DNA of 64,000 nucleotides, from IMG/VR virus record IMGVR_UViG_3300007790_000161, positions 5,809 to 69,808 of that record; one strand, 5' to 3'. The DNA comes from a virus. The position numbers and the translations under genes were made by a program. The first letter of the stretch is position 1, and every line of letters starts with the position of its first letter. Shown in pieces: positions 1,196-12,702 of this stretch. The notes below the pieces were generated by a model that was given only the letters and a program-made list of their open reading frames with translations, was not told the DNA's origin and did not search any database.

Positions 1196-1234
1196 AAAGT
1201 GGGGCGCAATGCCCCAAGCTTGTAAGGAGGTAAC

Positions 1235-1528
1235 ATGGAAAACATGGCTTTGCCAAAAGCCTTGAGAACAAAGGTTGTTGATGGTCGAGTGTATTTCGAC
1301 CTTGAACAATTGCTTGAGATTATGTATGATGTATGCAATAAGACATCGGTCCTGGCAACACAGCTCATGGACCCTGCCCTAGGCACCATGACGCTAGGCG
1401 TAGCGAACATGTGCAAGGCTCTGGACGACGTTCTAACGGTCCATAAGGCTGCGCATGGGCTGTTGGGTCAGCGTGACTCTGGCAGCGGCTCACAGAGCGA
1501 TTCTAACGGGGTTGCTGAGCAGGACTAA
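1235..1528 (+). CDS. hypothetical protein
   Basis: RBS AAGGAGG; 97-aa ORF with phage-typical codons. Confidence 0.7.
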   Translation: MENMALPKALRTKVVDGRVYFDLEQLLEIMYDVCNKTSVLATQLMDPALGTMTLGVANMCKALDDVLTVHKAAHGLLGQRDSGSGSQSDSNGVAEQD

Positions 1529-1700
1529 ATCTGCTACACTAATTACATGTTCGTTAGGTGATAGGACACCTTTTCTCTTAGGATTCCGGTACCTCTATCA
1601 GTCAGGTCAGGCGAGAGGCTAAGTAACAGTCGGCAGTTATGCCGGAATCCCTTCACAATTAGATATGTAAGAATGTCCAATTAACAGAAGGAGATTAAAG

Positions 1701-1805
1701 ATGCCCGAGGTTTACGATTACGATGATGAGTCGCAGGATGTTTTCGTTGAGTCGGATTCTCCTGTGGACAGTGTTTACATCCGAGATGGACTGACCGATT
1801 TTTAG
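1701..1805 (+). CDS. 34-aa acidic peptide (not in the ORF track)
   Basis: RBS AAGGAG then MPEVYDYDDESQDVFVESDSPVDSVYIRDGLTDF*. Confidence 0.55.
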   Translation: MPEVYDYDDESQDVFVESDSPVDSVYIRDGLTDF

Positions 1806-1815
1806 GAGTTGACTT

Positions 1816-2085
1816 ATGCGCACTGGACTTGAGAACACTAAGCAAGAAACGCTTGAAATCTTGATTACTAACCTTAAGTCCGGTGTGCTTAAGGTTATTG
1901 AAATGGGTCCGGCTGCTTTGGTTTCCGACAATCCAAAGGAATGCCCTCCCGCTGCTGCTTTTGAAACCAACATGATGATTCTTCAAGCCTTTGAGGCAGA
2001 ATGTCTCAAGCGTGGAATCGACTTTGATTCCATTGGTCCTGATATTCGAGAGATTGAGGACCGGTGGCTTGAAGCCCGACAATAA
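1816..2085 (+). CDS. hypothetical protein
   Basis: RBS AGGAG; in operon. Confidence 0.65.
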   Translation: MRTGLENTKQETLEILITNLKSGVLKVIEMGPAALVSDNPKECPPAAAFETNMMILQAFEAECLKRGIDFDSIGPDIREIEDRWLEARQ

Positions 2086-2101
2086 GGAATAGGTAAAGAC
2101 A

Positions 2102-2311
2102 TTGGCAATTGTTCGTATCAGCACTGTACTTAAGAATGCTCCGTCCGTAGGTATTCAGGCTTGTGTTTATGGTGTCGAATGTGAAACCATTGAGTCTAAG
2201 GACCCGGCCGGAATTGTTTTTGAACTGATGGGTTCCAAGGAAAAGATTGCCAACGTCGTTGGCCGTACTGGTTCCCGCATTCTAAGTATTGCTGAGCCTG
2301 TAGGAAAGTGA
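2102..2311 (+). CDS. hypothetical protein
   Basis: TTG start; in operon; followed by a terminator hairpin. Confidence 0.6.
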   Translation: MAIVRISTVLKNAPSVGIQACVYGVECETIESKDPAGIVFELMGSKEKIANVVGRTGSRILSIAEPVGK

Positions 2312-2316
2312 GTCTG

Positions 2317-2340
2317 CCCCGCCATTTTGGCGGGGTTTTC
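2317..2340 (+). terminator. intrinsic terminator
   Basis: CCCCGCC-ATTTT-GGCGGGG followed by TTTTC. Confidence 0.65.
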
Positions 2341-2357
2341 TCGTCTCTGGTAGCTGC

Positions 2358-2387
2358 TTGACAGGGCTACCAAGCTTGCTGTAGAGT
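2358..2387 (+). promoter_or_regulatory. sigma70/HrdB-type promoter
   Basis: TTGACA-N18-TAGAGT. Confidence 0.7.
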
Positions 2388-2412
2388 TCTTACCAGAACG
2401 AAGGGAGACAGA

Positions 2413-3087
2413 GTGTCCAAGGCAACGTATCCTATCAAGCGTCTGATGACCCGTGACAGGGGCATCTGCTGGCTTTGCCGGAAGCTTGTTTCAAGGGAGC
2501 ACGCCACGCGTGACCACGTAATTCCTTATTCTCATGGTGGACCGAACCATGAGGCGAATCTTAAGCTTGCTCATCGGAAGTGCAACGAAAAGCGCGAGAA
2601 CAAGAATTTGATTTCTAAGGCTGAAAGCCTTAAGATTCTGCTGAAGTGCCAAAGCCACCGGTGCTTCCGCTGCCTTGTTGTTCTTCATAGCGATGATGCA
2701 ATGATTTCCCAGGATTGCCCGCGCGGGTCTCTTAGGGAAATTCGGGTGGCTATTTGTAAGTCTGGATGCGAAAAGAAGCTGCTTATTCCTTTTCAGAAGA
2801 GGAAGAGTGAGAAGCGCATCACCAAGAGAATTGAATCTAGGAAGAATAGGATTCCAATGGAAATGATTGTTGCTGATTCCCTGTATGCTGACCAGCTTCA
2901 GGATGGGGATTATGTAAGGTTCTACGCTGAGGGTGCTCTTCGTTTCGGAATTGTCCGAGACGTTGTAGACAATGATGAATTCTTCACCATTACCCTTGAG
3001 GATGATGTTGAGGGAGACGTTCAGGAATACAGCGCTGGTCCCGACACTGTGTATTCTCTTCTTATTCACGAGGCTGTTTCTGTTTAA
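2413..3087 (+). CDS. HNH endonuclease with extra Cys-rich and acidic C-terminal regions
   Basis: RDRGICWLC...TRDHVIPYSHGG.NHEANLKLAHRKCN is a canonical HNH motif. Confidence 0.8.
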   Translation: MSKATYPIKRLMTRDRGICWLCRKLVSREHATRDHVIPYSHGGPNHEANLKLAHRKCNEKRENKNLISKAESLKILLKCQSHRCFRCLVVLHSDDAMISQDCPRGSLREIRVAICKSGCEKKLLIPFQKRKSEKRITKRIESRKNRIPMEMIVADSLYADQLQDGDYVRFYAEGALRFGIVRDVVDNDEFFTITLEDDVEGDVQEYSAGPDTVYSLLIHEAVSV

Positions 3088-3100
3088 TTGAATGGGCGGG

Positions 3101-3130
3101 TTGACAAAACCCGCCCAAGCTTGTTAGTCT
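3101..3130 (+). promoter_or_regulatory. sigma70-type promoter embedded in an inverted repeat
   Basis: TTGACA-N18-TAGTCT. Confidence 0.65.
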
Positions 3131-3174
3131 TCTTTTAAGTGACCCTATTGAAGGGAGAAAACTAGGAGAAGACT

Positions 3175-3561
3175 ATGGAAAAGAAGTGGTATCTAGGAAT
3201 CGCAGCATTTGCGATTGCTCTAGCTACTCTGGTTATTGTAGTGGTGTCTAGTATGGATACTACCCAGAGTAAGTTTGAGGAGTATGAAAGTTACGCTAAG
3301 CAAGTAAACATCGTTGATTGGTCAATTAGCGAGGATACTGCTAAGAGTTTTGCTGAGGCCAATTGTGATAAGCTCGCAACAGGAGAGATGCCAGCAATCA
3401 GATTTCAAAGCACGGACCATGTAAAGTCAAGTGCGTCTGTATTGGCAGCGTATTGCCCCGCCTCATTTGATAATTTTTTGGCGGGTATTATCATGAAGTA
3501 TCCAGAATACAGGAGTACAGCAATGTACCTGAACGAAAGGCTCAAGGTTGGTTCTGATTGA
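3175..3561 (+). CDS. membrane-anchored protein, DUF732-like
   Basis: N-terminal TM helix; Cys pattern ANCDKLATG...LAAYCP. Confidence 0.55.
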   Translation: MEKKWYLGIAAFAIALATLVIVVVSSMDTTQSKFEEYESYAKQVNIVDWSISEDTAKSFAEANCDKLATGEMPAIRFQSTDHVKSSASVLAAYCPASFDNFLAGIIMKYPEYRSTAMYLNERLKVGSD

Positions 3562-3664
3562 GTGGCTGGTAAAGTGCCTGCTCATGGGTGTTGCATGTTG
3601 TGCCGGTGCTGCGCTAGGGTTGTATCTAGGTTTTCTGATGGCAGTGAACGGATGGTTTGGATAA

Positions 3665-3802
3665 ATGGCTAAGAAATACCGAGACCCGGTTGAAGATTTG
3701 TTCAACGAGATTGCGGGCGGATGTGCTTTAATCTTCGCAGCAATCTTTTTCCTACCCTTCGTGGGGCTAGGAATCGGCATCGGATACTGGATTTGGGGCT
3801 GA
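3665..3802 (+). CDS. small membrane protein containing an in-frame TTA codon
   Basis: MAKKYRDPVEDLFNEIAGGCALIFAAIFFLPFVGLGIGIGYWIWG*; TTA at 3728-3730. Confidence 0.55.
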   Translation: MAKKYRDPVEDLFNEIAGGCALIFAAIFFLPFVGLGIGIGYWIWG

Positions 3803-3814
3803 TGCCCTGGGGGG

Positions 3815-3844
3815 TTGACTCTGACCCCCAAGCTTTGCTAAGGT
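3815..3844 (+). promoter_or_regulatory. sigma70-type promoter
   Basis: TTGACT-N18-TAAGGT. Confidence 0.65.
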
Positions 3845-3869
3845 TGTCTCACAACGAAGGGAGACGGAC

Positions 3870-4280
3870 ATGAAGTCCACGGAAGGTTACAAGCTCGCTC
3901 TGTCGAAGCACGCAAAGGAACAGCTCATTAAGAAGACCGGAGAGCTGGGAATTACGCGGGCACAGCAGGCATTCGAAACCCCGGATAAGGTTTATCCGAA
4001 TAAGAAGTACAAGGGTCAGTTCCGGATTGTCGGTAAGGGTCTTTGCCTTATCGGTCGTCCTACTGCCAATGGCCTTTTCCGAGTGTTCACGGTTTACGAG
4101 GATGGTGTTATGACTCCTCCCCGTGAAGACCAGATGGATACAGAGGAAGGCAGGGCGTATGCTGAGCTTTATCGAAAGGCTCAGGTCACTGGGAAGGTCG
4201 CTCGAAACAATGAGTATTACCCGCGCGCAAAGAAGCGCCGTGATGCTCCGAGTGATATACGTCACACGTATATTCGATAA
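3870..4280 (+). CDS. hypothetical protein, DUF4258/RelE-like fold candidate
   Basis: N-terminal LSKHAKEQL and a late VFTVY strand resemble DUF4258. The CDS is secure; the fold is tentative. Confidence 0.5.
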   Translation: MKSTEGYKLALSKHAKEQLIKKTGELGITRAQQAFETPDKVYPNKKYKGQFRIVGKGLCLIGRPTANGLFRVFTVYEDGVMTPPREDQMDTEEGRAYAELYRKAQVTGKVARNNEYYPRAKKRRDAPSDIRHTYIR

Positions 4281-4360
4281 ATAAATATATGGTACCCTGG
4301 TGAAATCCGCCGCCCTCAATTCCGGGGGCGGCGCGTACTAAACTTAGGAGATTTGATTTT

Positions 4361-4846
4361 ATGTATAAGAAGACTGCGGCTATCGGAACGCTTCTTGCTT
4401 CGATGACTCTAGTAGTAGGCATTTCTACAAATGCTGAGGCTGCAACAATCAGAGGTAAGGCGTACAACGTAGCCAAGGCTCAGCTTGGGGACAGATATTG
4501 TGGAGACAATAAGAAGTCCTGTGGTGGAAGCGTCGGACCGAATAGTTTCGATTGCTCTGGTCTTGTACAGTATTCATACAAGAAGGCTGGAAAGACAGTT
4601 CCACGAACAACTCAAAGCCAGTTTAAGGCTTCAAAGGATATTACGGTAAATCAGCGTCAGCTTGGTGATGTGATTTACTTCAGTCACAAGGGCACTCGTG
4701 ACCACTTTCATGTCGGCATCTATGCTGGCAACGGGTATATGATTCATGCGAATGCAGGGTCCTACTACGGAAAGAAGGTAATCAAGGAAAAGATTTCTTC
4801 TTACTGGGGAAAGAACTATAACGCAGATTATCGTAGGCTCGGTTGA
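4361..4846 (+). CDS. secreted NlpC/P60 peptidoglycan hydrolase
   Basis: Signal peptide; motifs FDCSGLV, PRTT..Q and HVGIYAGNGYMIHA. Confidence 0.9.
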   Translation: MYKKTAAIGTLLASMTLVVGISTNAEAATIRGKAYNVAKAQLGDRYCGDNKKSCGGSVGPNSFDCSGLVQYSYKKAGKTVPRTTQSQFKASKDITVNQRQLGDVIYFSHKGTRDHFHVGIYAGNGYMIHANAGSYYGKKVIKEKISSYWGKNYNADYRRLG

Positions 4847-4907
4847 TTGTGGCAGGGTGCCAATTTTGCTTTAAGGCACCCTGCAAGCTTGTAATAAAAG
4901 GAGTAGC

Positions 4908-5081
4908 ATGACAATCAAGTTTGGTGTAGTATTTCTAGCAATTGCAGTATTGCTCACTATATTGTCTATGTGGCATGAATGGCTGTCGGGTGCTTGCGTA
5001 TTCTTCTGGGGATGTGCAGCAGCTTGCATCATCATCGGGAAGGTTCCCGATGGGGTTGACACAGACCAGCCAGTCAGGTAG
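4908..5081 (+). CDS. small membrane protein (57 aa, not in the ORF track)
   Basis: RBS AAGGAG; two hydrophobic stretches. Confidence 0.55.
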   Translation: MTIKFGVVFLAIAVLLTILSMWHEWLSGACVFFWGCAAACIIIGKVPDGVDTDQPVR

Positions 5082-5138
5082 ATTAGTTGTTGTCAGGGCG
5101 GGCCAACAACCCGCTAGCTTCCCACAAAAGGAGAGAAC

Positions 5139-5438
5139 ATGCCGAAGGTTCGTGCGAAGAATGACCGTAGCGGTATTGCTGACCTGGGTGCTCACCACCT
5201 TTACAAGGCTCCGCGATTTCCTGCTCCGCGAATTTCTACGGAGGACTTTTGCCCGGCCTATCACCGACTTCAGCTCGGACTCAAGAACAGTGAGTCGAAT
5301 CTGAAGTTTGCCGGAAAGGCTGTAGTCAAGAAGCAGACTCCGGAAAACATCGAAAAGCTGAAGACTGCTAGGGAGAACATTCGTCAGACCAAGGAGATTA
5401 TCTTTACTCATCTGAGTGAGTGTGAAGACTGTAAGTGA
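5139..5438 (+). CDS. hypothetical protein with C-terminal HxxxCxxC
   Basis: RBS AAGGAG; basic coiled-coil region. Confidence 0.7.
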   Translation: MPKVRAKNDRSGIADLGAHHLYKAPRFPAPRISTEDFCPAYHRLQLGLKNSESNLKFAGKAVVKKQTPENIEKLKTARENIRQTKEIIFTHLSECEDCK

Positions 5439-5487
5439 TGTATTGCCCCCGAAAGGGGGCAAAGCTTCCATAATTAAGGAGAAGGAA

Positions 5488-5670
5488 ATGGAAGACTTTG
5501 GACTGGGAATGTTTCTTGGTGCCATGATTGGTGTCTTTATCTCGACTTTGATTTTCCTCGGAGTGAGTGAGGATATGGAAAGCGATTCCAAGAATGAACA
5601 GAAGCGTTTCGAGTTGTGTCTCAAGCGTGATATGCAGTGGGTTGACCAAAACTGCATCGGCAATAAGTAA
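5488..5670 (+). CDS. small membrane protein
   Basis: RBS-supported ATG at 5488; one TM helix and two Cys. Confidence 0.6.
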   Translation: MEDFGLGMFLGAMIGVFISTLIFLGVSEDMESDSKNEQKRFELCLKRDMQWVDQNCIGNK

Positions 5671-5714
5671 TACCGGGCGGACTTCGGTCCGCCAAGCTTT
5701 CCAACACAAGGAGA

Positions 5715-5903
5715 ATGATGAAGCGACACTTCAGTAATTGGTGGCCGGGATATGTCATGGGAACCTTTCTTGTGGCAATTGTAATTTTTGCGGGAATGGG
5801 AATTACTTATGACGCTAAGCAAGAAAAGCGATGTCTGAAGGCAGGATATCAGTACATCGATGGTACTTGCTTCAAGAAGGCTATTTTTGCTGAATGGGAG
5901 TAG
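5715..5903 (+). CDS. small membrane protein
   Basis: RBS AAGGAG; TM helix plus CLKAG...C, the same architecture as the preceding gene. Confidence 0.6.
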   Translation: MMKRHFSNWWPGYVMGTFLVAIVIFAGMGITYDAKQEKRCLKAGYQYIDGTCFKKAIFAEWE

Positions 5904-5950
5904 CCTTTCTGCCCACGAAAGTGGGCAAGCTTCCTGACATAGGAGATTAT

Positions 5951-6226
5951 ATGAGTATTCATGGCGGGGTTGAGAGAGAAATGACCCTTCTTTCATTCAG
6001 GTGGAAGAAGAACATTGACGAATATGACGGAACACTTGATGAGACATGGCATCTTACCATTGTACTAGGATGGTGGGATATCACAATTGAAAGGATTCCG
6101 AACCGCAAGCACTTCAGCCTGAAGTATGGTATCTGTGGATTCGGATACTGGATTAGCGCCAATAGGAATTTCGAAACGATGGAAAAGCGAACATTCGGAG
6201 ACGCAAGCGAAAGGTTGCTGAAGTGA
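5951..6226 (+). CDS. hypothetical protein
   Basis: RBS AGGAG before ATG 5951. Confidence 0.6.
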   Translation: MSIHGGVEREMTLLSFRWKKNIDEYDGTLDETWHLTIVLGWWDITIERIPNRKHFSLKYGICGFGYWISANRNFETMEKRTFGDASERLLK

Positions 6227-6438
6227 TGGATGACAATGACATGCACCCCGGTTCTTGCCTTCTGTGGCTCATAGCTATAGGGTTGGTCTTGTGGTTGGTA
6301 ATTGATTCGGTGGCAAACTGATGAGCGACGAGAGAAACAGAAAGGTTCTCCTCTGGATGCTTCGCCTAAGCCCAATCGGCGCACTTGCCATGATTGCAAT
6401 GGTAGTGTACGCTATCACTCAACAGTAAAGGAGATAAC

Positions 6439-6618
6439 ATGACAAACGGTGAGCTGATTGAGTATCTGAGCACGTTTCCGAAGGATGCTCAGGTTGATGG
6501 ACTTCTGGTTACTGAGCATGGTAAGATGTTTCCTGTACTTGAGAGCAGCACGCTAGACTCTCAGGATGGAGAGATTTCTTGGGAGCTTTACACTGGTGAA
6601 GAATACGACTGTTCGTAA
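6439..6618 (+). CDS. hypothetical protein (59 aa)
   Basis: RBS AAGGAG; begins MTNGELIEYLSTFPKDAQV, a common phage N-terminal pattern. Confidence 0.6.
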   Translation: MTNGELIEYLSTFPKDAQVDGLLVTEHGKMFPVLESSTLDSQDGEISWELYTGEEYDCS

Positions 6619-6689
6619 TCCAAACCCGCCCGGATTTCCGGGCAAGCTTTCCTTCTAGACTATAAGGGTATAGAAACTAGGAGGATGAA

Positions 6690-6845
6690 ATGAATGTTTG
6701 GGTAGTAACAGAAGGAAATTGCACTTGCTGTAACTGGTATGTTGGCGGGGTTTTCTCAACAGAAGAGAAGGCCAACGCCTATGTATCAAAGAGTGAGTAC
6801 AAGTATTCTGAAATTGACGAAGCAATAATTGACGAAGAGGATTAA
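6690..6845 (+). CDS. hypothetical protein (51 aa)
   Basis: RBS AGGAGG; MNVWVVTEG...GGVFSTEEKANAY. Confidence 0.6.
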   Translation: MNVWVVTEGNCTCCNWYVGGVFSTEEKANAYVSKSEYKYSEIDEAIIDEED

Positions 6846-6846
6846 A

Positions 6847-7416
6847 ATGGCAACGTTCTTCACGAGTGACACGCATTTCGGTCATCAGCGTATCATCGAG
6901 CTGTGCGAGCGGCCTTTCGATTCGGTTGATGAGATGAATGAGGCAATGATTGAGCGCTGGAATGAGACGGTAAAGCAGAGTGACACCGTTTACCATCTTG
7001 GTGATGTGGCACTCGGTAAGATTGCCGAGTCTCTTCCCCTCGTTGGTCGTCTGAATGGTTACAAGATTCTTGTTCCTGGTAACCATGACCGCATTTTCTC
7101 AGGCGAGAAGGAAAAGCAGCGTCTCAGGTTCGGTCCGGAGTACGATAAGGTCTTTCAGTACACGCTCCCTGAGAGCTTCCGTACGACCCTGGGAGGCTTT
7201 GATGTGATGCTGAGCCACTTCCCCTACGTTGGGGACTCTCACGGGGCAGACAGACACGCTGACAAGCGTCCCAAGGATGAGGGTCTGCCTATCATTCACG
7301 GTCACGTGCATGACGAGTGGGCAGAAAACGGCCGGATGTTCAATGCAGGTGTTGACGTTCGAGACTTCCGCCCCGTTCATGAGGATGTGGTGGTTGACTG
7401 GCTCAAGAGCCTGTAG
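6847..7416 (+). CDS. calcineurin-like metallophosphoesterase
   Basis: Motifs SDTHFGH, YHLGD, PGNHD, SHFP and HGHVH. Confidence 0.9.
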   Translation: MATFFTSDTHFGHQRIIELCERPFDSVDEMNEAMIERWNETVKQSDTVYHLGDVALGKIAESLPLVGRLNGYKILVPGNHDRIFSGEKEKQRLRFGPEYDKVFQYTLPESFRTTLGGFDVMLSHFPYVGDSHGADRHADKRPKDEGLPIIHGHVHDEWAENGRMFNAGVDVRDFRPVHEDVVVDWLKSL

Positions 7417-7474
7417 TAAGGTGGGGACTGTTCGAAAGGGGCAGTCCCCAAGCTTCCCTGATTGAGGAGAGACA

Positions 7475-7780
7475 ATGGAATTGTTTCATTTCGTATGGGC
7501 TGATGTAATCGCTCTGGGAATCATTGCAATTGGTTTCTGGCGGGCTTTGTATCGTTGTCCTGTTGGTATGAATCCCGATAGGATAATGTATTGGTACATG
7601 GGATGTGGATGGACCACGCTTGGTGTCATCAGAACATATGAGGGATTTTATGTTTCTGCTGCTATTGATGCTGGGTTCGCCGCATATGACTTCTACCGCT
7701 GGTGGAATGCTGGTGGTGGAGATGGCATCAAGAACTTCCTTCAGAGCCTTGTCATGAAGCCTGCTCATGCTGTAAGGTAG
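7475..7780 (+). CDS. membrane protein
   Basis: RBS GAGGAG; three hydrophobic segments. Confidence 0.65.
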   Translation: MELFHFVWADVIALGIIAIGFWRALYRCPVGMNPDRIMYWYMGCGWTTLGVIRTYEGFYVSAAIDAGFAAYDFYRWWNAGGGDGIKNFLQSLVMKPAHAVR

Positions 7781-7838
7781 TACCACAAGCGGGGGCGAAA
7801 GTCTCCGCAAGCTTCCTCCCTAGACCTTAAGGAGAACG

Positions 7839-8294
7839 ATGGACCTGTTTAACGCAGAACGTCAGGCAAAGCTGCTTATGGCTGCGCATGGATTGATTGA
7901 CAAGGGGTGGCGTTTCGAATGGGATAATGCCGCGCGTCGATTCGGTCAGTGCCGCTATAGCACTAAGACAATTTCAATGTCTCGTCAGTTGACTGTTCAG
8001 CGTAGTGCTGACGCTGTTCGGAATACAATGCTTCACGAAATTGCACATGCGCTTACTCCTGGCAGTGGGCACAATGCGATTTGGCGGGCTAAGGCAATTT
8101 CCATTGGCTGTGATGGAAACCGCTGCTCTGATGATAAGGTTGAGGTTGATTACAAGTATGTAGCAAAGTGCCCGAATGGGCATGTTTCAAAGAAGTACCT
8201 TCGTAAGCCTCGGGCATCTGCTAGGCCCCGCTCTTGTGGTACTTGTAGTCCTGTTTACAATGCAAGATATGCAATTAAGGTGTACGCTATCTAG
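7839..8294 (+). CDS. SprT-like zinc metalloprotease
   Basis: Motifs RFGQC, MLHEIAHAL and GH...W, plus a C-terminal Zn knuckle. Confidence 0.88.
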   Translation: MDLFNAERQAKLLMAAHGLIDKGWRFEWDNAARRFGQCRYSTKTISMSRQLTVQRSADAVRNTMLHEIAHALTPGSGHNAIWRAKAISIGCDGNRCSDDKVEVDYKYVAKCPNGHVSKKYLRKPRASARPRSCGTCSPVYNARYAIKVYAI

Positions 8295-8403
8295 AATGGA
8301 CTGGTTCCCCATTCTGTGAATGGTTCGGGCGGGGAGAAATCCCCGCCAAGCTTGCTACAACAGATGGTACAAGAAACCTCTGTGTGGCTGTGTAGGAGGG
8401 CGT

Positions 8404-8586
8404 ATGAACGTGGCTAGGGAGTTGCGTCGGAAAGAGCATTCTAGGCCCGGACATGAGCTTAGAGACGCTACGGATGACGTATTTAGAAGCAACATGGACA
8501 CTGTGACCAGAAGGTTTCACAGATGTTCGTGCGGGTGGTTTGGATGGTTGACAGTCAAGGCGGAAGGCGGTAAGGTAAAGCCATGA
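8404..8586 (+). CDS. hypothetical protein (His/Cys motif)
   Basis: RBS AGGAGG; GHEL...CSCGW. Confidence 0.6.
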   Translation: MNVARELRRKEHSRPGHELRDATDDVFRSNMDTVTRRFHRCSCGWFGWLTVKAEGGKVKP

Positions 8587-8810
8587 ACGTTGAGGTGAAC
8601 AGCCTGTTCTCCCCACTTTTCTGGAAGTCTGTTGCAAGACGACAGGAGGATGGAGAGCGATATGGTCAGGCAGTATTCAATTCTGCCTATGGATTGTTTC
8701 CAGAAGAAGTTGGTGAGCTAGTTGCAACAGAGCTTGACCCGTTCTACAATGATGGGGTTGTCAAGCTTTTCCTTGCAGCACTGACCAGCAAGATTGGGGA
8801 AGTTCGATGA
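8583..8810 (+). CDS. hypothetical protein
   Basis: Overlapping stop/start; RYGQAVFN...DPFY motif. Confidence 0.65.
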   Translation: MNVEVNSLFSPLFWKSVARRQEDGERYGQAVFNSAYGLFPEEVGELVATELDPFYNDGVVKLFLAALTSKIGEVR

Positions 8811-9172
8811 CCCATTTCAAGGAAGTCTGCAAGTGTGGTAAGGTAATCATGCAATGTAGGTGTCCCGGACAGAAGGAGATTCGCGTGACTGACAAGTGTG
8901 AGCATGACTGGAGTCAGGCTCTTGTGGATGAGTTGGATGAGCAGTACGATGTTCCCGCAAGTGTTGAGGGAAACATCGTAAAGAAGGTTGAGATTGACCT
9001 TCCCGGACGGCACTACCTTGACGTTACGAATCACAACCTCTACGGTTTCATTGTCACGCTGACCATTTGTGACGAGACTGGCGGGGTTATCGCTGAAAAG
9101 GACCTGCTTGTTGGTGTTAAGCAGGAGAATCTTGCCAGTGATGTGGCAGGAATTTACAATTCCTACGAATGA
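8807..9172 (+). CDS. hypothetical protein with N-terminal Cys cluster
   Basis: ATGA overlap; CKCG...CRC. Confidence 0.65.
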   Translation: MTHFKEVCKCGKVIMQCRCPGQKEIRVTDKCEHDWSQALVDELDEQYDVPASVEGNIVKKVEIDLPGRHYLDVTNHNLYGFIVTLTICDETGGVIAEKDLLVGVKQENLASDVAGIYNSYE

Positions 9173-9178
9173 GGGGTA

Positions 9179-9370
9179 ATGGGAATCAAAAAGTGGACAG
9201 ACTTAACTCCATCTGAAAAGATGCAGTGGTTTGACAATTCAATACGAATTCATGAGGACCTTCCTATTCAGAAGAAGCGTAAGATTTGGGCGCGGATTGA
9301 AAAGGAACGTAAGAAGGCTGAGCAAAGAGCCAAGAGGCGTAAGCCTAAGTGGTGGCAGCGTAAAAAGTAA
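9179..9370 (+). CDS. small basic protein
   Basis: RBS GAGGGG; Lys/Arg-rich. Confidence 0.6.
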   Translation: MGIKKWTDLTPSEKMQWFDNSIRIHEDLPIQKKRKIWARIEKERKKAEQRAKRRKPKWWQRKK

Positions 9371-9383
9371 CAAACGGGAGGGG

Positions 9384-9412
9384 TTGACAGACCCCTCCCA
9401 AGCTTGTAAGGT
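9384..9412 (+). promoter_or_regulatory. sigma70-type promoter embedded in an inverted repeat
   Basis: TTGACA-N17-TAAGGT. Confidence 0.72.
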
Positions 9413-9434
9413 AATGACCAACAAAGGAGAAGAA

Positions 9435-9671
9435 ATGTTCGGTCGTAAGAAGTACCGCAAGGGTCGTAAGTATGTGCTTGTCATTGCGGCACTGGACCTT
9501 CGCAATCAAGCTAGGCTGTACACTCTCAGGAAGCGTGTTTGGTTTAGTAAGCATGTTTCCGAGATTGACGCAATGGACATGATGATTGATATGCTGTGTG
9601 AAACTTCAGGTGATGAGACTTTCACCAAGCATGAGGCTATGGTTGTCTTTTACCGTCTTGTTCGAGACTAG
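9435..9671 (+). CDS. hypothetical protein
   Basis: RBS AAGGAG before ATG 9435. Confidence 0.65.
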   Translation: MFGRKKYRKGRKYVLVIAALDLRNQARLYTLRKRVWFSKHVSEIDAMDMMIDMLCETSGDETFTKHEAMVVFYRLVRD

Positions 9672-9727
9672 GACTTGACAGGCAGGCGCAAGTCTGCCAA
9701 GCTTGTAACACAACGAAGGGACAGAAG

Positions 9728-9934
9728 GTGCTTCCATCAGGCCACAAGCCGGTATGCAGGTCATGTTACAATTTCGATTGCGACAATTGTGCTGACAAAA
9801 TTGCAAAGAATACTGAATGGGAAGGGGTATTTCCTAAGTGCGAATGCGGATGCTCGGTAAGCGTGGACAGCCGTTCTGTGGAAGCAAGTGCTGTGGAGAA
9901 AAGCGTGCGAAGAAGAAGCACACGCGCCGAATGA
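9728..9934 (+). CDS. Cys-rich (Zn-finger-like) hypothetical protein
   Basis: CRSC...CDNC...CECGC. Confidence 0.6.
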   Translation: MLPSGHKPVCRSCYNFDCDNCADKIAKNTEWEGVFPKCECGCSVSVDSRSVEASAVEKSVRRRSTRAE

Positions 9935-9986
9935 AGCGTCGGGAGCGTGGTTCCCGAGCGTGGCGTAGCTTCTAGAAAATCGGGGG

Positions 9987-10015
9987 TTGACAGAAAAACC
10001 CTCTAGCTGTAAGGT
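9987..10015 (+). promoter_or_regulatory. sigma70-type promoter driving a non-coding region
   Basis: TTGACA-N17-TAAGGT. Confidence 0.72.
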
Positions 10016-10021
10016 AATACC

Positions 10022-10345
10022 AACGCAAGACGGTGAGGGAAGGCGCACTAAGACTCCCGACTCTCACCAAGCTTTGAAGGGTAGAATTACCTCCGTAATG
10101 AGTCCGTGGGTAAGAGTCCATCACGAGTGGAACGAATGGTAACCTACTGCGGCTAACCTTTCTCTTAGACGCCTGATGACCCCCGGATTACGGCTCTTTG
10201 TTTCTAGAGCTTAGATGACCGTAACATCGGTTGCAAACGATAAAGGGGTGAGGGGTGCGCTATAGTGAAAATGGCAAACACACTCGTAAGAGGGGTTCCG
10301 GTTCGAATCCAGATAGCGTACTGGTGTGGGATACCATAAAATCCC
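10022..10345 (+). ncRNA. candidate structured non-coding RNA
   Basis: About 360 nt without a plausible ORF downstream of a promoter. Several stems: 10032-10068, 10076-10162, 10182-10230, a tRNA-like domain, and 10328-10345. Confidence 0.55.
10256..10321 (+). ncRNA. tRNA-like structure lacking an anticodon loop
   Basis: 7-bp acceptor stem TGCGCTA/TAGCGTA, U8A9, D-arm GTG-AAAATGGCAAA-CAC and T-loop TTCGAAT. A CTC-GTAA-GAG hairpin replaces the anticodon arm. Confidence 0.65.
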
Positions 10346-10386
10346 AATCAATAACCGGCTAATCTGCTTAATTAAGGGAGTTTTAC

Positions 10387-10671
10387 ATGCGCCTCAAGGA
10401 TGTAGACCTTACTGGCTGGACCCTGAACATTGAAAAGCATCCGGGATTTAAGGTGATGGGTCAAAATCTGTATTGGTGTTATGTTACCCCGCCCGGAAAG
10501 GAAAAGCCTCTCGAATTCGTTTCCTTCCAGTTTGGGTTGATGATTAATGACCATCTCAGTCTTTATGCCTGGACTGATAAGGGTGCCGAACGTAAGTTCA
10601 TGAAGAAGGTTCGTAAGATGGTTCGAGACGAAATCGTTGAAGCCGAAAGCAAGAAGACCATTTCCCTCTAA
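10387..10671 (+). CDS. hypothetical protein
   Basis: RBS AAGGGAG. Confidence 0.65.
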   Translation: MRLKDVDLTGWTLNIEKHPGFKVMGQNLYWCYVTPPGKEKPLEFVSFQFGLMINDHLSLYAWTDKGAERKFMKKVRKMVRDEIVEAESKKTISL

Positions 10672-10684
10672 GGAGACTGACAAC

Positions 10685-10864
10685 ATGATGATTCCCGCTC
10701 CCCGAGTCGAGTCGTTCCCGTGCCGTGAGACCGGCTGTGATGGCTTCTACGTGCCTTACAGCGACGGTCTGATGGTTTGCTACGACGGACACGTTTCTAG
10801 CCTCTCTGTGGACGACGTAGACGTTCCGGTCGGTGCGCTTGTTCCTGTCCTGGAAGAGTGCTAA
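10685..10864 (+). CDS. hypothetical protein (Cys motif)
   Basis: RBS AAGGAG; CRETGC...CYDGH. Confidence 0.6.
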   Translation: MMIPAPRVESFPCRETGCDGFYVPYSDGLMVCYDGHVSSLSVDDVDVPVGALVPVLEEC

Positions 10865-10917
10865 GATTCTTCTAGCTGGGGACGAAAGTCTCCAGCAAGC
10901 TTCCCTAAGGAGGGGTT

Positions 10918-11151
10918 ATGCAGTACACTATTACTGAGATTCTGCCCAAGAAGTATATGGAAGACCCTACTGACCTTCAGTTTGTTACTGAGGTTGAGGA
11001 TGAATTCCTTCCGAGAATTGGTGATAATCTCGTATATAACAGTCAAGAATATCGAGTTAAGGACGTTGAACGTAATCTTGACACTCGCACTACTATAGTG
11101 TACGTTAGTGTACCTGAACCCGAGCTTGACTTTGGTTATATCGATTGCTGA
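10918..11151 (+). CDS. hypothetical protein
   Basis: RBS AAGGAGG; FLPRIGD motif. Confidence 0.65.
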   Translation: MQYTITEILPKKYMEDPTDLQFVTEVEDEFLPRIGDNLVYNSQEYRVKDVERNLDTRTTIVYVSVPEPELDFGYIDC

Positions 11152-11207
11152 AATCCGGGCGGGTTTTCCCGCCCAAGCTTCCCAACTATCTAATCAAAGG
11201 AAAAGTC

Positions 11208-11708
11208 ATGGTTGGAAATGAAGAGGAAGCTCGTATCATTGCACTCTGGGAATTCGATGAAGTGGATGAATACGAGTATCAACCCCCCGATGGTTTTGAG
11301 TATATCGGGGAGGGAGCTAGCAGGATTGCATTCCGCAGTCTTGCGACTGGAGTAGTGTATAAGCGACACTACTACTCGGATGATGACACTAACGAATTCG
11401 AATACAAGGCAATTGAGAGAATCAAGAGAATTCCTCTCAAGGGCTGGAGGGTTCCCGACGCTACTCTTTATGTGGTTGAGGAACAGCAAATTATAGCAAT
11501 GGAATTTGTTGAGGGTGGAATGGATGTCCATTGTCAGCGTTCCTACTCATTCTGGAACAAGCCGTGCAATTGTGGTAAGCCTCTGGGAATGTGCAGCGCA
11601 GAAGCGTGGGAGCAGCCTCAAGGAAAGTGGCGGGTTTCAGATTTGCATGTTGGCAATATCGTAATCGATGATAACGGCATCAGGGTCTTGATTGACCTCG
11701 GTGCTTGA
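11208..11708 (+). CDS. protein-kinase-like protein (paralog 1)
   Basis: Gly loop GEGASR, VVYK, helix-C Glu, IAMEFVEG hinge, DLHVGN catalytic loop and IDLG. Confidence 0.82.
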   Translation: MVGNEEEARIIALWEFDEVDEYEYQPPDGFEYIGEGASRIAFRSLATGVVYKRHYYSDDDTNEFEYKAIERIKRIPLKGWRVPDATLYVVEEQQIIAMEFVEGGMDVHCQRSYSFWNKPCNCGKPLGMCSAEAWEQPQGKWRVSDLHVGNIVIDDNGIRVLIDLGA

Positions 11709-11762
11709 CCATCACTGCTCAGTCATGATAGGCTGAGCAAGCTTCGGAACAAAGGAGAAAGA

Positions 11763-11903
11763 ATGCCTAAGCGTCAGATGCCCAAGCCTCGTAACCCTCG
11801 TATGAACAAGACGATGGAGTATCGTAAGGGCTCTGGTGATTTTCCGACAATGAGTAAGCCTCGCTACTCTCGTAAGGTCAAGTACATTCGAAAGGAATCG
11901 TAA
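11763..11903 (+). CDS. small basic peptide (46 aa)
   Basis: RBS AAGGAG; MPKRQMPKPRNPRM... Confidence 0.55.
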   Translation: MPKRQMPKPRNPRMNKTMEYRKGSGDFPTMSKPRYSRKVKYIRKES

Positions 11904-12073
11904 TGGAATCCTGGCGGGCTTTCAGAGATAGCAAGTCTCGTGTAAGATATGTAAGGGAAGTTAAGGAAACGGAAGAGAAGTTTGTTCTTCCGTTGTGGAT
12001 TACAATTCCATTTATCATTGCAATGCTTCCCATTATATTTGTTGAAGTTAGATTTCTCTGGGAGGTTATGTAA
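11903..12073 (+). CDS. small membrane protein
   Basis: TAATG overlap; C-terminal TM helix. Confidence 0.5.
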   Translation: MESWRAFRDSKSRVRYVREVKETEEKFVLPLWITIPFIIAMLPIIFVEVRFLWEVM

Positions 12074-12126
12074 TGAATGGTCACTGCTGGTGTGGTGCTG
12101 AGTATCCTTGCCTCAAGCACTGAGGG

Positions 12127-12155
12127 TTGACACCCTACAGGGGGGTAGGGTAAGG
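12127..12155 (+). promoter_or_regulatory. sigma70-type promoter
   Basis: TTGACA-N17-TAAGGT. Confidence 0.7.
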
Positions 12156-12246
12156 TTGTAGTCACAAGGGCAGGGGGCGGAAACAAACCCTGCCAAGCTA
12201 GGAAGGCCAACGGGTCCTCCGGAAAATATTCTAGGGAGAATGCATT

Positions 12247-12630
12247 ATGCGTAAGCTTCACTTCACTGACCCTGAGCTTAAGAACTTCGCCCTTCGTGGT
12301 ACGCATTCGATTCGCGGAGGTATGGAGCTTCTTCACGTGCACTCTCGTAAGGAGCGATTCGGCTCTTACGCTACTCGAATGGACAGTCTGACTCAGGCTT
12401 ACGAGCTTCCCGCTCACGTGATTCACAAGATGATTACGGGCGGGGATTCGGATAAGACGGAAATGCAGTGGATTTACTTTACGAACAAGTACGGCAAGAT
12501 TCGCCCCACCTATCTCTCTGACTCTGGTGTGATTCCCTACGTCGGCTCTGGTGGTTCGGCTCTCAACGACACGAATTTCCTTCTTGACCTCGGTGCCCTT
12601 CGTAAGTTTGGGATTGAGGTTGACTACTGA
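12247..12630 (+). CDS. hypothetical protein
   Basis: 127-aa ORF with phage codon usage. Confidence 0.7.
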   Translation: MRKLHFTDPELKNFALRGTHSIRGGMELLHVHSRKERFGSYATRMDSLTQAYELPAHVIHKMITGGDSDKTEMQWIYFTNKYGKIRPTYLSDSGVIPYVGSGGSALNDTNFLLDLGALRKFGIEVDY

Positions 12631-12702
12631 GGTAGTCATGGGCTACAGTAGAAGCGTAGCCCAAGCTTGCAACACCCCATCGTAAACCAACACTAAGGAT
12701 GA

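Follow-up and report, generated by a model that had tools for sequence, protein, structure and literature searches.

Why would a phage keep a gene shaped like that of a tRNA, elbow included, in which nothing could serve as an anticodon loop? An earlier note, made from the sequence of the window (the whole 64,000-nt stretch analysed here, taken from the 72-kb partial virus genome IMGVR_UViG_3300007790_000161), had described such a tRNA mimic and offered it as a processing tag, a decoy for tRNA-targeting defence nucleases or a sink for aminoacyl-tRNA synthetases. Here, we show by comparison with related phages that the mimic is the 3' half of a conserved RNA of ~150 nt, and that a conserved kink-turn domain immediately upstream, absent from the earlier reading, accompanies the tRNA-like part in every copy. 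We hold it very probable that the whole is a conserved non-decoding phage RNA, in which a kink-turn cap is joined to a tRNA-shaped domain.

A conserved tRNA-shaped RNA of BK-type phages

The window derives from a Gilson-like Streptomyces phage of cluster BK (Stanwilliamsviridae, Loccivirinae), and Gilson and Francob are the nearest matches (~97% over the RNA element). The RNA lies in the right arm, amid small genes annotated without function and outside the main tRNA arrays. Copies occupy the same locus in 29 named phages of BK type and in three contigs from metagenomes (L019, L103 and L129), and each of the four whole records searched gave a single strong match; the L129 copy, which lay outside the first model, scored 69.5 bits. 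Every other phage or bacterial genome searched lacks it. A blastn search with the cap against 50,697 phage records returned BK-type Streptomyces phages only, and a family-wide pattern matched six IMG/VR contigs, all BK-type, and nothing in JGI metagenomes or GTDB, by an exact-match scan that may miss distant relatives. A looser pattern added one new member (L103), the rest being chance matches or ordinary tRNAs. The 5' domain model, run on a sample of 151 genomes from the phylum to which an Ilumatobacteraceae genome belongs, gave one weak match with no T arm behind it, and in Starbow, a phage of the sister cluster, ordinary tRNAs are the top matches and no member is present. The RNA is described in no paper that we found, in a search mostly without subscription journals. 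The family is real, conserved, restricted so far to one phage group and apparently undescribed.

One candidate, at 4911–5004 (minus strand) of contig L015, was rejected as a member, its score lying in the range of ordinary tRNAs and a kink-turn being absent. This tRNA-like gene follows a DUF397 gene in a GC-rich viral contig, and has a long bulged rod for an anticodon arm and a similar acceptor sequence.

GenBank labels the RNA tRNA-OTHER or undetermined in Belfort, Karp, MeganTheeKilla, Forrest and Jada, tRNA-Cys in BillNye, Circinus, Wakanda and Muntaha, and tRNA-Leu in Annadreamy, and leaves it unlabelled in further records, while ARAGORN calls Cys, Phe, His or undetermined across the relatives. 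Eight relatives pass the Rfam RF00005 score, on the body alone.

In the window, each tRNA-like part described in the earlier note was found in place (Table 1), in the order acceptor, D, variable hairpin, T, acceptor, with no CCA encoded after it. The minimum-energy fold contains the acceptor, D and short-hairpin stems, and the T-arm hairpin in a slightly shifted register (z = -2.47; 4 of 200 shuffles fold equally well). The D-loop plus T-loop pattern, picked after the fact, is found a single time in the window and in none of 100 shuffles. ARAGORN, and Rfam at its gathering score, both miss this domain. A covariance model built without the window and without sequences sharing its D-arm type nonetheless gave the window copy 50 bits (E ~5e-9), above the best ordinary tRNA of three related phages (43.6). 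The window T stem has a private C.A mismatch (10299/10311) that close relatives lack.

Table 1. Positions in the window of the conserved RNA, its parts and its neighbours
Feature	Position	Strand	Details and basis
Promoter-like site (putative)	9987–10015	+	TTGACA-N17-TAAGGT; pattern
Hairpin followed by AAGCTT	10032–10074	+	Motif repeated along the genome arm; sequence, other copies in the window
Module X, conserved RNA	10079–10159	+	Neighbour of the tRNA mimic, separate from it; covarying closing stem
Full conserved RNA	10172–10321		~150 nt
Kink-turn, bulged strand	10172–10184	+	Canonical helix strand 10172–10174, 3-nt bulge GAU, GA, 3b = C10180, non-canonical helix strand
Long hairpin	10188–10224	+	Outer stem 10188–10193/10219–10224, inner stem 10195–10200/10210–10215, palindromic loop hexamer 10203–10208; type A only
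4-bp hairpin	10226–10241	+	8-nt loop with invariant palindrome TTGCAA 10231–10236; type A only
Kink-turn, non-bulged strand	10245–10255	+	3n = U10249, GA 10250–10251, GGG 10252–10254, continuing into G10255, first base of the 8-bp acceptor helix
tRNA-like domain (3' half)	10255–10321	+	8-bp acceptor helix 10255–10262/10314–10321, D arm, short variable hairpin, T arm
Acceptor, 5' strand	10256–10262		
U8A9	10263–10264		
D arm	10265–10281		GG at 10273–10274
3-bp hairpin, GTAA cap	10283–10292		Replaces the anticodon arm
Variable nucleotides	10293–10296		
T arm	10297–10313		Loop 10302–10308
Acceptor, 3' strand	10314–10320		C10321 can pair with G10255
3' trailer	10322–10346	+	6-bp hairpin 10327–10332/10341–10346; covariation
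Module Y remnant	10354–10361		

Conservation was assessed on 26 parsed copies (the window, 22 named phages and three contigs). Across their 18 distinct sequences, 98% of cells are paired and 10 of 17 pairs show two-sided changes; none of 500 shuffles reaches the observed pairing or covariation score, and slid registers drop to 31–45%. These counts come from sequences that are akin and fall into two deep lineages, so that many cells trace to few events, and carry no formal probability. The 8-bp acceptor helix is fully paired, and all 26 copies keep the elbow, formed by the D-loop GG and a 5-bp T arm (97.8% paired) with a UUCRA loop. Beyond this GG the D-loop varies across relatives, so the Leu/Ser-like character once seen in it is not conserved. 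The bodies are only 53–70% alike and yet 98% paired with many two-sided changes. What the relatives have at this locus is not a normal tRNA in scattered decay, and the view of a conserved tRNA mimic rather than a simple pseudogene has held.

The anticodon region behaves differently. Between the D and T arms, the 26 copies have 16 different sequences, none of which forms a canonical anticodon arm (5-bp stem, 7-nt loop and U33), bearing out the claim that no 7-nt anticodon loop lies there. The GNRA mini-hairpin, proposed as the defining trait, turns out on comparison of the homologs to be one of these 16 versions, found with its 3-bp stem in only 6 of 26 copies. Other versions are a 5-bp GAAA hairpin, stems closing loops of ~5, 6 or 8 nt, and long bulged stems, and in four copies, all of type B (see below), the region lacks a stable stem. 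The loop of BK2 phages has a C at the would-be U33, and Ankus alters the would-be anticodon. Judged from these alignments, the family trait is an anticodon region free to change, with the GNRA mini-hairpin as one variant. Several variants (L004, L005, L012 and L010) hold 6-nt palindromes (CTTAAG, TTATAA, GCTAGC).

Does the acceptor end carry an amino acid identity? The outer pair is G:C in 19 of 26 copies and C:G in the other seven, and the next pair flips with it from U:A to A:U. A G-1:C73 pair is thus possible in the window, as had been noted, but its proposed meaning, tRNA-His identity, is not supported: because the outer two pairs flip together, it is the helix that is conserved and not the identity. 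The third pair is G.U in 25 of 26 copies, which resembles the G3.U70 determinant of tRNA-Ala, but is followed by U or C and not by A73. The same pair can alternatively be read as an inherited terminal G1.U72; among 97 ordinary tRNAs of these phages, a terminal G.U is found in 27 and a following A, C in 60. When positions are counted as in the ordinary tRNAs of these phages (A73 and C74 after a terminal G.U pair), the leader is paired at both -1 and -2 in every copy of the mimic and in none of the 97. As a separate observation on L116–L121, pairing between -1 and the discriminator is possible in 62 of the 97 ordinary tRNAs, and nearly all of the 97 are encoded without a complete CCA.

In its body, the mimic most resembles ordinary phage tRNAs, the best match being the tRNA-Ile(UAU) of Starbow. 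It is similar to the ordinary tRNAs of Stanwilliamsviridae, the probable ancestor type, in the acceptor, the D stem and the 3' end pattern; it differs from them by one acceptor pair fewer, two more leader pairs, the kink-turn cap, the missing canonical anticodon arm and its place outside the arrays. Its probable ancestor is an ordinary phage tRNA, from which one acceptor pair and the anticodon loop were lost, and the simplest history would be a tRNA minus one acceptor pair, plus two leader–trailer pairs.

The kink-turn cap and its surroundings

By sequence consensus, the acceptor helix is directly preceded in all 26 copies by a standard kink-turn, with a canonical helix, a 3-nt bulge ending in U, tandem G.A/A.G pairs and a non-canonical helix; such a leader occurs on none of the 97 ordinary tRNAs. 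Both helices are 100% paired in 12 aligned type A sequences, with a two-sided change in one pair, and in type B the canonical helix has just two contiguous pairs. The 3b.3n pairs are C.U (11 copies), C.C (12) and U.G (3). McPhee et al. formulated a 3b.3n rule under which one class of kink-turns folds in Mg2+ or other metal ions without protein (PMC4382518). All 26 would fall into this protein-independent class, which is suggestive only, as 6 of the 16 possible pairs qualify. Searches of five genomes found no L7Ae family gene and no RtcB family match.

The cap comes in two forms. In type A (19 of 26 copies, that of the window among them), two hairpins and the kink-turn that closes them form a three-way junction, and in type B (7 of 26) a short hairpin replaces this 55-nt insert. 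The type A 5' domain is paired in 96.8% of cells, with two-sided changes in 11 pairs, one of them inside a loop palindrome. In the long hairpin, such changes affect two of six outer-stem pairs and all six inner-stem pairs, and the loop palindrome switches between TCGCGA and TCTAGA with self-complementarity kept. The stem of the 4-bp hairpin is 95.8% paired, with one two-sided change; this hairpin could alternatively be a T-loop-like motif. A reading of the latter, which contains GCA, as half of a split or permuted tRNA-Cys was rejected, its loop being 8 nt long and the phages owning a canonical tRNA-Cys. Taken alone, the 5' domain has a thermodynamic z of only -1.0 to -1.6, which is weak, and support for its fold comes from covariation and not from energy. 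Cap and body are swapped independently: the window and MeganTheeKilla are 100% identical in the cap and 54% in the body, whereas the window and Belfort are 79% identical in the 5' domain and 99% in the body.

What lies around the RNA? A short Cys/Lys/Arg-rich ORF at 9838–9975, without a Pfam match, is called as a gene in relatives, and the non-coding stretch is therefore taken to begin near 9976. A -35/-10-like site stands 67–183 nt 5' of the kink-turn in 15 of the 20 loci with enough flank; in the remaining five, the pattern matches are distant or inside an upstream gene. The promoter scan did not call the site in the window, whose -10 is too unlike the E. coli consensus. A similar AAGCTT-hairpin motif lies 15–130 nt 5' of the kink-turn in 16 of 20 loci. 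Hairpins ending in AAGCTT recur along the arm (1214–12670 in the window) and in relatives, often 17 nt after TTGACA; they may be a promoter -10 variant or a processing site.

Two further non-coding modules neighbour the mimic. Module X, a candidate conserved RNA of 80 nt in BK1 phages, lies 5' of the mimic in some phages and 3' in others, and has no Rfam match. It was rejected as an HDV-like ribozyme, since by eye it lacks the P1/P1.1 arrangement and no Rfam ribozyme matches it. Module Y, a conserved multi-hairpin module, is found 3' of the mimic in Faust and TunaTartare and in two metagenomic phages (from ~1677 in L005, ~1315 in L010 and ~3760 in L129); going by its remnant, the window seems to have lost it through deletion. 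Neither module was seen at the BK2 loci.

Directly 3', two pairs of the trailer hairpin show two-sided changes among nine BK1 type A sequences. Its loop ACCA could possibly pair with UGGU at 10322–10325 in an H-type pseudoknot, but the four candidate pairs are invariant across the BK1 type A set and hence uninformative on pairing. In most other copies, unrelated hairpins begin within a few bases of the acceptor helix, terminator-like in BK2. In Emma1919 and Phredrick, whose copies have two pairs altered, an HNH endonuclease gene starts 2 nt past the acceptor helix (L009 1624–2058; L138 624–1058) and replaces the trailer hairpin; because this gene directly follows the helix, the trailer is dispensable there.

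Relation to known RNAs

The bacterial Y RNAs YrlA (RF02553) and Yrn1 (Chen et al., 2014; PMC4201824) are, like the RNA described here, non-decoding tRNA mimics with D and T arms plus a second structured module, and are found in actinobacterial phages. However, YrlA is permuted (T, closed acceptor, D), carries a GNCGAAN0-1G motif and lies ≤4 kb from a Ro60 gene, whereas our mimic has the normal order, lacks this motif and lies ~47–50 kb from Ro60 where one exists (in Belfort and TunaTartare, TROVE is at ~70 kb and the mimic at 118–121 kb). BillNye and Annadreamy have the mimic and no TROVE (Ro60) match. With order, motif and Ro60 linkage all failing, and no YrlA match at these loci (YrlA was covered by full Rfam scans and YrlB tested separately), identity with YrlA was rejected. 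Separately, YrlA-like RNAs do occur ~0.5–0.8 kb 5' of the Ro60/TROVE genes in Belfort, TunaTartare and Starbow (L123 ~610–715; L124 ~595–700; L122 ~840–930), among which only the Belfort copy matches YrlA (28 bits against a gathering score of 69).

Similar to the tRNA-like domain of tmRNA, the mimic lacks an anticodon arm, keeps the T arm and acceptor helix and, in one reading, has a G.U third pair; in contrast to tmRNA, it has a full D stem, no reading frame for a tag peptide and no encoded CCA, and BillNye and Starbow carry a separate tmRNA. The Streptococcus sRNA SpF41 (RF02435) has a consensus with a T arm and a short arm at the anticodon position, but lacks a kink-turn, and only the shared T-arm motif matches; as the best of weak Rfam matches, with 22.9 bits (E 0.53) far under its gathering score of 52, it was rejected. 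An antisense role was likewise rejected, the longest opposite-strand match within the virus's own partial record being 12 nt (E 0.59).

Possible roles

What might such an RNA do? We lean, tentatively, toward a decoy with protected ends that presents a tRNA elbow. The mimic would be transcribed from the upstream promoter together with the neighbouring small RNAs and would stay mostly in one piece, its 5' leader locked in a protein-independent kink-turn and stacked on an acceptor helix two pairs longer, and its 3' trailer folding at once. It would then display the elbow and top half of a tRNA without a CCA end or a usable anticodon. Its binding partner would be a host protein that reads tRNA shape, the most plausible candidates being an anti-phage tRNA nuclease or some other enzyme acting on tRNAs, and the mimic would itself be neither charged, decoded nor cut in the anticodon. 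The anticodon region and the entire tRNA body are swapped among phage lineages. That the partner would read tRNA shape is suggested by the conservation of the elbow and top half, with the anticodon region free; the sequence variation of this region is compatible with an arms race and equally with neutral drift. The anticodon arm is what anti-phage nucleases cut, and at least AriB has been modelled as also touching the D-loop (PMC12409363, PMC13056530). Since the known anticodon nucleases also hold the anticodon loop (PMC12409363), a decoy that lacks this loop might bind poorly. In addition, RNase P, which gauges its cleavage site from the elbow (PMC4919913), could cleave at 10255 or 10256 while sparing the 3-bp helix of the kink-turn, so the structure does not force the RNA to remain unprocessed. 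A further point against the decoy is the dispensable trailer of Emma1919 and Phredrick.

The other leading reading, though we consider it rather unlikely, is a processing tag, in which the tRNA shape would serve solely to guide RNase P and RNase Z in cutting a small-RNA operon, freeing the kink-turn domain (~85 nt in type A) and its neighbours. Conservation covers just the parts read by these enzymes (acceptor helix, elbow and T arm) and leaves the anticodon region free to vary; one body can replace another next to a constant 5' domain, cutting at 10255/10256 would free a closed domain, and the mimic has other conserved non-coding modules beside it. The t-elements of plant mitochondria provide a precedent (Forner et al., 2007; PMC1920247). 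With these and mascRNA-type tags, the mimic shares a tRNA shape in normal D-then-T order, a conserved T arm, a non-canonical remainder and a place beside other RNAs; it differs in its leader, tied in a conserved kink-turn stacked on the acceptor helix, in its phage host and in being known here from sequence. Against such processing, the upstream piece in the seven type B copies would be a kink-turn and short hairpin of ~25–40 nt, and modules X and Y were not seen at BK2 loci. Bacterial RNase P favours a single-stranded leader, whereas the leader of the mimic is double-stranded up to the expected cut, as in none of the 97 ordinary tRNAs.

A structural role seems improbable. The RNA would here dimerize or polymerize by way of its pair of self-complementary loops, and the tRNA part would serve for folding or docking. 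Two adjacent loops each hold a perfect 6-nt palindrome, compared with 5 of 169 window-fold loops of 8–9 nt; one palindrome is altered at two positions with self-complementarity kept, and like-with-like loop duplexes are more stable than cross pairs. However, seven of the 26 copies lack both hairpins, a single event may account for the compensatory change, and the test was picked after the loops had been seen. We would give similarly long odds to a combination of this idea with the decoy, an anti-defence sponge in which the mimic, its ends sealed by the kink-turn cap and by the 3' hairpin or pseudoknot, self-assembles in most lineages via the palindromic loops into dimers or arrays, with bodies swapped to match defences. 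If true, such arrays would show several tRNA elbows at once, and the swaps would match different host tRNA-targeting defences.

Use of the RNA in matured, CCA-added and aminoacylated form (with His via G-1:C73 or Ala via the G.U pair), for a non-decoding purpose or as a synthetase sink, is very unlikely. The G:C end pair in 19 copies and the G.U third pair in 25 would speak for it, as does the M. smegmatis YrlA, another mimic, which is cut by RNase P and gains CCA (PMC4201824). But the end pair is C:G in the remaining seven copies, the discriminator under the 8-bp reading is U or C and not the A of tRNA-Ala, and the G.U, common together with a following A, C in the phages' own tRNAs, may be inherited. 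The sink suggested in the earlier note is not supported, given the missing encoded CCA, a discriminator that varies and a D-loop that is not Leu/Ser-specific.

Least likely of all is that the RNA is a tRNA pseudogene in decay, or that BK2 phages have here the functional tRNA-Cys of their annotation: the tRNA-like body, the private T-stem mismatch of the window, the four stemless type B copies and the four tRNA-Cys labels would fit, but covariation among bodies so unlike each other largely refutes decay, no copy has a canonical anticodon arm, the anticodon calls of ARAGORN and GenBank differ by genome (Cys, Phe, His, Leu or undetermined), the BK2 loop departs from U33, Ankus departs from the would-be anticodon, and BillNye, like TunaTartare, has separate canonical tRNA-Cys and tRNA-His genes.

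In conclusion, a single gene that GenBank variously lists as tRNA-Cys, tRNA-Leu, tRNA-OTHER or not at all can now be annotated as one RNA family. The tRNA genes of phages are currently interpreted as a means of countering defences that cut tRNAs (PMC10264068), an argument that covers decoding tRNAs; the mimic cannot decode and yet is kept across a phage group, under a cap found on none of these phages' ordinary tRNAs. Named, culturable Streptomyces phages with and without the 55-nt insert, and with 16 versions of the anticodon region, make a compact system, suited to asking if the shape of a tRNA by itself serves phages as a decoy or a processing signal.
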